The notes under the pieces were generated by a model. The model ran no database searches and was not told the origin of the DNA. It saw nothing but the letters and a program-made list of their open reading frames with translations. The position numbers and the translations under genes were made by a program. Shown one piece after another: positions 47,301 through 50,169 of a DNA stretch of 64,000 nt (position 1 is its first letter; every line of letters starts with the position of its first letter). This DNA is from Ascidiella aspersa (taxonomy: Eukaryota), in the NCBI GenBank assembly GCA_963924565.1, contig OZ004610.1, forward strand, positions 9,300,001-9,364,000, in the 5' to 3' direction.

Positions 47301-50169
47301 TGATTTAGTACCATAAATCAGTAATAATAGTTCATCAGTCAATAAATCATGCAACGTAGCACGGGCAATCGGGCATTTTCACCGAGCCCAGTTTGATAGC
47401 CAGTTATCGGAACATACAAAACCTGAGCTGATTGTATTCAACATTAACTCTGACGAATGGTTAGGCGGCCTGGACAGCGGCGACATAGACGAGGAGTTCT
47501 TCCTCCAGTTCCAAGTGGTCAACGAAAACCTGAGTCACTACATCGACGACAACATCCGGGAATTTATCGGAGTCGAACCGAGCGAATTCGTGCCGGGCAA
47601 GAACTTCGAGGAGAGCAATAAAATGAAAGGTGAAGTCTTTGAGCTGATGGCGAATCGTTTTATTTCGATTGTAGATTGTACGTTGCAAAGTCTGACCACC
47701 CCGAAAGTAGGGTTATAATGCTTTAGGTTGGTATTCAGCGGTTTTAGTAATTTGGAGATAGTCATACGGCAATCCTTTCACTGAAAAACAGACTTTTGTC
47801 GTGCCATTATTCGTAGCAGGCATATCTGACTGTTTTAAGGAACTACACAAGCCAAACAAACTTCCCAACAAGCCATTTAAAAACAACCTACTGTCAGGAT
47901 CAGTTCGAAAATATATATATCGGACTCTGTAGCCCTGCTTTTCAGTAATAATGCTATCTTATTTCAGTAATTACGTTTTGTTTTTATATTGTATTTGCCT
48001 CTCCAGGAATCAACGGGTACCTGTCTCATGTCGATGGACTGAACATGTACAAGGACGACATCGTGCGGTGGCATTTAATCGGTTGGGGAAACGAGAAGGA
48101 TTATCACTCGGTTCACTTCCACGCCCACACTTATGATGCGATGTGAGTAGCGAATTAAGATAATATTATAGTAATAATATTTAGATTTATGTTTGTTTTA
48201 TTAAGGTAGATTGTAACGAAACCTCCCTAAAATGTATCCAGAAAATAGTCAGTTTCCAAAGTTAAATATAATTCGTTTTATTTAGTTTTTACCTAAATGT
48301 TTTAAGTCATTCTAACAACAATGTAGAACCACAATATCACCCGAGAGTATGGAAAATTGATTTACTTATAAATTAATTTCATTTTTAGCCTTTGAAAGTA
48401 TTAACATGCGGTTGGCTACGAAACATTTGGCTCTAATTTGTTTTTTCCGAAAGCATAAAAGGTATGGGGCAACTGCACTGTCAAAACAGTTATTATTTTA
48501 CTCTTTTCGCTTTAGTACCGACGGCGTATATCGCGGTGACGTGTTCGATGTTTTTCCGGGATTCTTTGGAACAGTTGTCATGAGAACAATCGCCGTCGGT
48601 GATTGGTTGCTCCACTGTCACGTGTTCGATCATATGCACGGAGGAATGGAAACCACCTACTCCGTGATGGACAGCGGTCCGTAGCTTTATTCTTTCCTTA
48701 ACCAGTTTAACAAATATGTTTTACAAAATGTTTAGAATTATTAGTTTGTTCAAACTTGTGAAGTAGGTTAATATTAGCTTTATTATTAAAGGGATCATTG
48801 GCATTTTGACTTTACATTATGTCACACCAAGTATTTAATATGGCATCACTAGTAATACTGCAATTAATTTTAGCATACTGCGGCTACCTGTGTAAAATGT
48901 AAAAAGTGTACTTTATTATTGATATCATGTTTTTTTTATTTTTGCTTTAACTAAAAATAATAGGCTGTGTAGGTTTTTTATAGATATTCAAATATATATT
49001 TCTAAATAAAAAATTGAACTAACAGTTTGCTGCATGATATTGACATTCTTTTCCGGATTGTACATTTTCTACTTCTAATGTTAATGACCTAAGTAGATTT
49101 GTTTTGCCTAATTGTGTTTGCTCGACGAATATTTTATATGTAATTTTTAACGTAGAGGCCTGCCAAAATGTGTTGATGTACTAACAAGTCTGAGTAGTAA
49201 TTATAGACCTTATTGTACCTCGTGTCTCGTTGCATAATACCATTTCTTTTTCATAAAATATTTTCTTCTTTTGACCCCAACTGTTTTTTTTAGTTTTTAT
49301 TCATAATGTCTAACTGTTTAAAGTATAGTACTGCGCTTAACTGTCTCCCCAGTATAATTTTGGTCCTGTTTAATAATATATCTGCTCTTATGGTGATGCT
49401 TGTTTTTCTTGCACGACCTCTATTTGCTCGGTTTGATTTTCAAAACATGTATTTTAATTTTAACCAACTATATACGTCTTAAAAACCGAAGCAAGGATCT
49501 TTCTTTGTTTATGCTTGTTGACTTTTCTAATAAAGGACTTGATATAATTTACTAATCTTCTGCATACGAGTTGATGAGAAAACTCCATTGGCATCCGGGC
49601 TTTCCAGTCAGAGACTTCTAAAACATGCGCACTGACCCGAAGCAAACCCTCTTGGCGCAGGTATAACGGCAGAACAGGAACGTCCTCACAAGGAGTGCTG
49701 TGAGGCGCACAAGGACGGCCCTAACTTCGTGCTGGACTGCAGCGGCATGGGCCTTGCCAATTACAAAGACCTCTTCAACGGCAACCGGTGGAAGGTAAAC
49801 GCGAGCAACGGGCACGGCAAGCAGCGAATGGTGGCCGCAAAGCTTGTGACCAGCATCGATCTCAGCTACAATATGCTGAGCGACCGAGAAGTAGTTAAAG
49901 TGCTCAAGCGATTCCACAATCTCCGCGTGGCAACCATCAACGGGAACCCGATTGCCAAACTGCACCGCAACCTGCTTTCAAGGAACAAGCACCTCGCCAC
50001 CCTGGTGGCCAGAAACACCCCGTCCCTGACCGGCGTCGCCAGAAAGCTTGTAGTTGGTCGCGACATGGATATGATCGACCTGTCCAACAACCCCCAGTTG
50101 CTGCCGGCCTGCCTCAATCGTATGTTCATAAGCCAGGAACACTTCCAGGCTTGTCGCGACGGGCAGTAG
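32328..50169 (+). CDS. Ceruloplasmin/hephaestin-like six-domain multicopper oxidase, copy A, with predicted C-terminal LRR exon (1211 aa; 1044 aa if it stops at 48684)
   Basis: Exons: 32328-32494, 32828-32969, 33931-34115, 35431-35546, 36021-36127, 36561-36755, 37196-37322, 37854-38034, 38843-39041, 39317-39396, 40630-40760, 41323-41487, 41965-42103, 42623-42761, 43735-43945, 45198-45325, 45420-45545, 46511-46637, 47465-47629, 48007-48142, 48516-48676, 49661-50169. Total 3636 nt, divisible by 3. Signal peptide [41 protein letters not shown]. Trinuclear-cluster ligands HPH, YHSH, HSVHFH, HCH. Type-1 sites [11 protein letters not shown] (D2), [11 protein letters not shown] (D4), [12 protein letters not shown] (D6). 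No TM segment. Confidence 0.92.
39632..40132. mobile_element. Non-autonomous DNA transposon (hAT/P-type, 8-bp TSD), 501 bp
   Basis: TIRs CATAGTTGCCATT / AATGGCAACTATG. Perfect 8-bp TSD GACATAAC at 39624-39631 and 40133-40140. Subterminal clusters of TCTAGA/TTAGAT motifs at both ends. Confidence 0.88.
44020..45150. repeat. Minisatellite of 45/50-bp units (~24 copies) filling most of an oxidase-A intron
   Basis: Unit CATAACGAAGTAGTTATTTCGATATACAAATCAGTTCTATATCCA, with CATAA-duplicated variants and degenerate edges. Explains ORF 44746..44979. Confidence 0.95.
49661..50169 (+). CDS. LRR-domain exon, predicted last exon of oxidase copy A
   Basis: Branch-like CTGAC at 49632-49636 and acceptor cttggcgcag| in phase 1. 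An in-frame TGA at 49633-35 lies just upstream, with no ATG or signal peptide before the Cys cap. Sequence [32 protein letters not shown]...[11 protein letters not shown]...[13 protein letters not shown]...[14 protein letters not shown]...[21 protein letters not shown]...FQACRDGQ*. Confidence 0.85.

Follow-up and report, generated by a model that had tools for sequence, protein, structure and literature searches.

Human ceruloplasmin is described in two reviews as carrying three iron sites, with the ligands E272/E935/H940/D1025 in domain 6, E597/H602/D684/E971 in domain 4 and E236/Y241/N323/E633 in domain 2 (PMC3738974, PMC11817551). According to the second of these, mutagenesis of the domain-4 and domain-6 sites reduced the ferroxidase activity of ceruloplasmin, and the two Km values of the enzyme possibly correspond to domains 6 and 4 (PMC11817551). 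Here, we describe two convergent (tail-to-tail) paralogs, A and B, which emerged from a self-comparison of the open reading frames in a window of 64,000 nucleotides of Ascidiella aspersa DNA (contig OZ004610.1, positions 9,300,001 to 9,364,000). As judged by alignment, both encode six-domain multicopper oxidases of the ceruloplasmin/hephaestin type in which only the domain-4 iron site keeps all of its ligands. All coordinates are positions within the window and residue numbers are those of human ceruloplasmin, fixed by alignments to ceruloplasmin in the PDB.

At the four domain-6 positions (272/935/940/1025), A reads N/E/K/D and B reads N/E/M/Q. The initial annotation of this locus had named these substitutions; its human ligand sets agree with the two reviews cited above (PMC3738974, PMC11817551) and every named residue is confirmed by the alignment, but its statement that the domain-6 ligands are lost applies only in part to A, which retains two of the four (E935 and D1025). 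The domain-2 pocket is also gone in both proteins, where K236, H241, S323 and K633 are found. The first-shell ligands of domain 4 (E971/E597/H602/D684) are kept in A and B, as had been proposed, but the surroundings of this site are eroded in B, with an exon shorter by five residues before E597, a proline after it and leucine as the axial ligand at 690. Most of the residues concerned lie outside the range of 47600-48650 to which the proposal had been attached:

36717-36719, forward strand: A, E272 replaced by Asn (domain-2 ligand of the domain-6 site), between Ser and Arg residues fixed in the tunicate clade described below
47611..47628, forward strand: A, E935 kept (47611-47613) and H940 replaced by Lys (47626-47628)
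60969-60967, reverse strand: B, E272 replaced by Asn
53289..53306, reverse strand: B, E935 kept (53306) and H940 replaced by Met (53291-53289)
51951-51949, reverse strand: B, D1025 replaced by Gln
36609..36626, forward strand: A, domain-2 pocket, E236 replaced by Lys and Y241 by His, with Ser323 at 37310 and Lys at E633 at 42054
41469..41486, forward strand: A, domain-4 site, E597 (41469) and H602 (41484), with D684 at 42726-42728 and E971 at 48093-48095
57726..57743, reverse strand: B, domain-4 site, E597 (57743) and H602 (57728), with D684 at 55848 (55828..55848) and E971 at 52667
48613..48648, forward strand: A, His-Cys-His bridge, D1025 (48628-48630), H1026 and axial M1031 (48646-48648)
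42744-42746, forward strand: A, domain-4 axial M690
55830-55828, reverse strand: B, domain-4 axial Met690 replaced by Leu

The copper His and Cys ligands are intact, as initially noted: the type-1 His/Cys/His sets of domains 2, 4 and 6 are complete in both proteins (9/9 in each), as are the trinuclear-centre histidines of domains 1 and 6 (8/8 in each), the His-Cys-His bridge included. The axial ligands of the type-1 sites in domains 2/4/6 are M/M/M in A and M/L/M in B. Full-length alignment places six cupredoxin domains in the ceruloplasmin arrangement in both. The overall fold was inferred via a model of the Ciona savignyi ortholog (pLDDT 91, TM-score 0.93 against ceruloplasmin 2J5W), which supports the fold only, the ligands being placed by alignment.

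Both gene models were assembled by hand from splice sites and open frames:

32328..50169, forward strand: gene A, 22 coding exons, 1211 amino acids; signal peptide, six cupredoxin domains and a C-terminal leucine-rich repeat (LRR) domain
32328-32494, 32828-32969, 33931-34115, 35431-35546, 36021-36127, 36561-36755, forward strand: A exons 1-6
37196-37322, 37854-38034, 38843-39041, 39317-39396, 40630-40760 (GC donor), forward strand: A exons 7-11
41323-41487, 41965-42103, 42623-42761, 43735-43945, 45198-45325, 45420-45545, forward strand: A exons 12-17
46511-46637, 47465-47629, 48007-48142, 48516-48676, 49661-50169, forward strand: A exons 18-22
63080-50610, reverse strand: gene B exons 3-22, with GT-AG sites and an open frame; 1218 amino acids for the whole gene

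Exons 1-2 of B sit ∼1.3-2.1 kb past the window end (flanking stretch L003). Exon phases and architecture are identical between A and B, and neither contains an internal stop. In run X3, a set of spliced contigs of unrecorded library type, 20 of the 21 introns of A are present as joints and the remaining one appears as a loose contig end matching exon 16; a spliced X3 contig also confirms the GC-AG intron 11 of A (donor 40760/40761), where B has GT. No B splice joints occur among the X3 contig matches listed, so the B model is drawn from the sequence itself. A raw RNA run (X5, 6% sampled) gave 0 reads on A exons and scattered reads near B and was weighed neither way. One X3 contig spans 49660-51113, from the last exon of A through most of the last exon of B; the 3′ ends of the two genes may overlap antisense, and the contig alone is not proof of one transcript.

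Sequencing or gene-model error was ruled out, as orthologs carry the same residues and the A junctions are present in spliced contigs. A pseudogene was likewise ruled out by the length of the open frames and by dN far below dS. Between A and B, dN is ∼0.31 and dS ∼2.7 (pN 0.26, pS 0.73), which indicates purifying selection, the ratio being rough since dS and pS are saturated. Given the intact copper His and Cys ligands, the low dN relative to saturated dS and the splicing of A, the proteins do look like active enzymes, in keeping with the initial view of them as active oxidases.

The distribution of the iron sites was examined in an alignment of A, B and the best 120 of 1143 matches to the C. 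savignyi ortholog (122 rows, heavy in fish HEPHL1; P0003 and P0004 were omitted as short), an intact site being defined as acid/acid/His/acid. All three sites are intact in 69 of the 122 rows, so the three-site state is likely to be ancestral. Of the 113 rows without a tunicate assignment, 103 retain an intact domain-6 site, 90 an intact domain-4 site and 80 an intact domain-2 site. Position 272 in these rows is E in 109, D in three and a gap in one, and position 940 is H in 106, Y in four and N in three; Asn at 272 and Lys at 940 occur in none of them (0/113), and the sample thus contains no ordinary invertebrate ferroxidase that shares these substitutions. Seven of the 122 rows have domain 4 as their only intact site: A, B, both Ciona proteins, Clavelina, P0006 and the octocoral P0054, which scores in this way solely through H940N (octocorals carry N940). 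A fragment, P0123, has K940, Q1025 and an LRR.

In a quick IQ-TREE analysis of 42 chosen rows (SH-aLRT support, midpoint root), A, B, both Ciona proteins, Clavelina and P0006 form one clade (SH-aLRT 100), with A and B as sisters (SH-aLRT 99), the branch of B being the longer of the two. Three Styela proteins fall outside this clade, and A and B fall among tunicate proteins, outside all vertebrate CP, HEPH and HEPHL1 rows. The exon 21 product of A shares 90% identity with a protein of Phallusia mammillata and 72-74% with Ciona proteins, which marks the host as an ascidian, probably one close to Phallusia. On this tree the iron-site pattern is old and has a single origin, in the ancestor of a Ciona/Clavelina/Phallusia-type lineage.

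Changes fixed in this clade at columns conserved in the outgroups are concentrated in domain 2 (20 of 69 columns, the remaining five domains together having 12 of 377; Fisher p = 2.5e-10, for eight outgroups of our choosing and columns that are not independent). Within the clade, 47% of the columns are invariant in domains 2 and 6 and 24% in domain 4, the least conserved, where the four iron ligands are invariant in 6/6 members (naive p = 0.03 from background rates). The rebuilt residues are K236 (6/6), R273 (6/6), K940 (5/6) and N272 (5/6, Clavelina having Asp), together with Phe at 1024, which is found in 0/113 of the rows without a tunicate assignment. According to a simulation study, D206, D230, E232, N271 and E272 of domain 2 lie in the domain-6 amine pocket of ceruloplasmin (PMC6900326). 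Since these five positions align with His, Lys, Lys, Ser and Asn in A, the domain-6 pocket has probably exchanged its acidic character for a mixed basic/aromatic one, and since the fixed changes cluster in domain 2, which walls this pocket, we take the pattern as remodelling rather than decay. To this extent substrate entry does look rerouted, as the initial annotation had supposed, and the iron-site pattern, whose conservation it left to be checked, is common to two Ciona species, Clavelina and P0006. The loss of the domain-2 pocket, the axial Leu of B, the LRR exons and the absence of a membrane anchor had escaped it.

Both proteins end in an LRR domain encoded by the last exon:

49661..50169, forward strand: A exon 22, LRR domain of the extracellular type with cysteine caps; spliced to exon 21 at 48676/49661 in X3
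50610..51154, reverse strand: B exon 22, LRR domain sharing 29% identity with that of A

This splice joint rules out termination at the end of exon 21 for A, although an additional isoform that ends there may exist. A model of the A domain (pLDDT 90.8) resembles capped extracellular LRRs such as Slit2 D4 (Z 12.8, rmsd 3.1, 124 aligned) and hagfish VLR (Z 12.7); these matches point to the fold and do not imply function. Foldseek returned no match to the model at E<=0.001, and a search of 1.84 billion representatives with the A exon gave eight matches, seven of them of the same domain kind. P0167 is closer to the B tail than P0166 (44% versus 37% identity), which hints that B-type orthologs exist in other species. 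No transmembrane anchor is present in A or B, in which the maximum 19-residue hydropathy after the signal peptide is 1.6 and 1.4, respectively, compared with 3.1 for the membrane anchor of Styela P0039. The LRR fusion also occurs in Ciona, Phallusia, Clavelina and Styela records and is absent from the non-tunicate Pfam annotations among the matches listed. As Styela P0040 and P0078 have the LRR and P0040 and P0039 keep all three iron sites, the fusion is independent of the site loss and is likely older.

The reading that we favour, with a confidence slightly short of an even chance, is that A and B are secreted single-site ferroxidases that oxidise Fe(II) only at domain 4, since the ligands are kept there and not in domains 6 and 2. 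Fe(II) would bind E971/E597/H602/D684, and the electron would pass from the domain-4 type-1 copper to that of domain 6 and over the His-Cys-His bridge to the trinuclear centre, where O2 is reduced. The domain-6 and domain-2 pockets would have been rebuilt once, in the lineage ancestor, with Lys, Arg, Asn and aromatic residues that exclude cations, and the Lys ammonium may occupy the former metal position. The signal peptide and the lack of an anchor suggest secretion of both proteins, with the LRR tail as a putative docking module in place of the membrane anchor of hephaestin. A is likely to be the working ferroxidase. B has drifted further, with its Met940, Gln1025, axial Leu, eroded domain-4 surroundings and less acidic surface (net charge over the first 1050 residues of −10, against −46 for A), and is the likelier of the two to have switched substrate.

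Besides the invariant domain-4 ligands and purifying selection, the genomic setting is consistent with iron oxidation: the genome has two ferroportin genes (L040 and L041), each in one long open frame, and transferrin-family loci on two contigs. Close to the N-terminal metal-binding motif of ferroportin, the two genes differ, with His in one and Tyr in the second. Genome searches, which give lower bounds, found no copper-competent six-domain oxidase besides A and B. Within these bounds, the candidates for a hidden canonical paralog were rejected: Pfam matches on C8 and C2 had no tblastn family match, two tandem genes (L005 and L006; C3 12.56-12.58 Mb) are laccase-like multicopper oxidases, and a third six-domain gene, ceruloplasmin/factor V-like (L037-L038; C5 26.28-26.30 Mb), has no copper ligands in the exons seen. 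A copper-less Ciona sequence that this gene resembles has been described (PMC3600357).

Several points weigh against domain-4-only iron oxidation. In human hephaestin, a review reports, domain-6 residues are critical whereas the domain-2 and domain-4 sites are seemingly dispensable for high-affinity oxidation (PMC11817551), and an enzyme limited to domain 4 may therefore oxidise iron poorly. Conservation of the rebuilt residues is as tight as that of catalytic ones, which fits a new function as well as it fits closure. Acidic residues just before E597 are fewer in A and B (net 0 and −1) than in Ciona and Clavelina (+3 to +6), and, the genome searches being lower bounds, a further ferroxidase may have been missed. 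The roles of individual type-1 coppers and iron pockets rest on few mutagenesis studies, with differing outcomes for ceruloplasmin and hephaestin; for the original mutagenesis and soaking experiments, reviews cite Brown 2002, Vashchenko 2012, Lindley 1997 and Quintanar 2004. Our literature search, mostly of open-access papers and at title level, found no paper on the iron sites or LRR tail of these genes and no functional study or measured Fe(II) oxidase activity for the orthologs named hephaestin-like or ferroxidase, and the database label 'ferroxidase' should be treated as unproven for these proteins.

It is also conceivable, though somewhat unlikely, that the domain-6 pocket, which is wired directly to the trinuclear centre, has been converted to take a neutral or anionic substrate (a polyphenol, for example a tunichrome or a DOPA/TOPA peptide, or an anionic metal chelate), with the LRR targeting matrix or partners and domain 4 accessory. 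The concentration of clade-fixed residues in domain 2, the remade amine-pocket positions with R273, K940 and Phe1024, and the 47% invariance of domains 2 and 6 would all suit such a site. However, the acidic triad to which catecholamine binding by ceruloplasmin is ascribed (PMC6900326, PMC3738974) is lost here, the aromatic-diamine site H667/M668/W669 (PMC3700992) reads T/V/R, tunichrome oxidation has been credited to a hemocyanin-like phenoloxidase (PMC5465252), and the pocket assignment comes from one docking and molecular-dynamics paper and alignment, not from coordinates. Together with the two laccase-like genes of this genome, these losses leave the catechol substrate suggested by the initial annotation without support. 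Were a new domain-6 substrate real, an unrecognised oxidase would join ascidian polyphenol and metal chemistry.

We regard as rather unlikely a two-entry enzyme that combines the domain-4 metal site with a new basic/aromatic domain-6 pocket, delivered by the LRR and oxidising polyphenols or anionic Fe/V chelates, with B leaving iron. If true, the ceruloplasmin family would include a case of natural substrate switching tied to tunic or blood-cell chemistry.

It is improbable that substitute ligands, such as histidines of the remodelled domain-5 loop with E935 and D1025, still allow metal binding at the domain-6 site. Two His-rich segments are conserved in the clade, in A exon 15 (43897-43925, a domain-5 surface loop) and A exon 7 (37202-37216, domain 2), and are possible extra metal ligands. 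The domain-5 loop has two or three histidines in 7/7 clade sequences covering it and good order in the C. savignyi ortholog model, A retains E935 and D1025, and Clavelina has Asp272; but histidines occur in this loop in Styela P0039 and P0078 as well, K940 brings a positive charge, and B and P0123 lack D1025.

Neutral loss among three equivalent, redundant pockets, the survivor being accidental, is similarly improbable. Single and double losses do recur across the 122 rows, of which only 69 retain three sites, and the octocoral P0054 reaches the domain-4-only state. Gar and cyprinid HEPHL1 (P0062, P0097, P0154, P0155, P0158 and P0162) lost the domain-6 site independently through K935, N1025 and often Y940, with domains 2 and 4 retained, and loss of domain 6 by itself thus is not unique to the tunicate clade. 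Neutral loss predicts scatter, however, whereas the replacements here cluster in one domain and are fixed throughout Ciona, Clavelina and the present genome. Separately, the coral-type hephaestin-like proteins P0036, P0065 and P0066 have three degenerate iron sites and a replaced domain-2 type-1 His.

That the enzymes oxidise vanadyl, as the initial annotation had suggested, or avoid binding it is very improbable: the genome has two vanabin-like matches, phlebobranch ascidians are reported to accumulate vanadium (PMC8303170) and Styela keeps three sites in two of three paralogs, but a single evolutionary event permits no statistical correlation, the ascidian pathway described is reductive (PMC8303170) and a literature search on ceruloplasmin and vanadyl, mostly at title level, gave no support.

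If iron is oxidised at domain 4 only, the clade would represent a natural, long-conserved domain-4-only version of the family and offer a direct test of whether domain 4 alone feeds the trinuclear centre; the model animal Ciona carries such a predicted oxidase. Elsewhere in the window, intronic tandem repeats occur in A intron 15 (44090-45109, period 45, 22 copies) and B intron 18 (53525-53747, period 40, 5.5 copies). An upstream gene on the forward strand has an IPT/TIG-domain exon (830-1183) and a transmembrane exon (14499-14834) and is presumably a plexin or Met/Ron-type receptor, the family name being a guess.

Compared with human ceruloplasmin (1KCW/2J5W/4ENZ), A and B share the six cupredoxin domains (ortholog model TM-score 0.92-0.93, 40% identity), the type-1 sites of domains 2/4/6, the trinuclear centre of domains 1/6, the domain-4 ligands, the signal peptide and the lack of an anchor; they differ in lacking the domain-6 iron site and H667/M668/W669, in the basic domain-2 pocket, in the C-terminal LRR and in the axial ligand of the domain-2 copper, which is Met in A/B and Leu in ceruloplasmin. 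This axial Met, the copper set and the database label of the orthologs are shared with vertebrate hephaestin/HEPHL1, which differs from A/B in that hephaestin has a transmembrane anchor in place of the LRR; the sampled tetrapod hephaestin/HEPHL1 proteins have lost domain 2 or 4 but not domain 6, the opposite of the A/B clade. Gar and cyprinid HEPHL1 (the P0062 and P0097 cluster) resemble A/B in the loss of the domain-6 site with a pocket Lys and in the intact domain 4, but have Lys935 and Asn1025, keep E272 and the domain-2 site, lack the LRR and are of independent origin. A relationship to coagulation factor V/VIII-like proteins is excluded by the copper ligands and by a tail that is LRR and not discoidin, and laccases have three domains with one type-1 site rather than six domains (ortholog model TM-score ∼0.2).

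The closest relatives are the orthologs from Ciona (XP_009861868 and H2Z3W5), Clavelina (XP_076807003) and Phallusia (CAB3252517), for which 'hephaestin-like' and 'ferroxidase' are labels. Where covered, they share K940, N or D at 272, K236 and the intact domain 4, and the LRR tail is present in the C. intestinalis, Clavelina and Phallusia records; unlike these orthologs, the present genome has a tail-to-tail duplicate, of which B is the more diverged. The sister tunicate group is represented by Styela clava XP_039249942 (P0040), P0039 and P0078: P0040 and P0078 carry the LRR tail, P0039 is membrane-anchored, and E/E/H/D is retained at each of the three sites in P0040 and P0039. A and B belong to the six-domain multicopper oxidases and lack the canonical domain-6 ferroxidase feature; by the missing transmembrane anchor and by their place outside the vertebrate CP rows in the quick tree, they are neither hephaestin nor ceruloplasmin proper.

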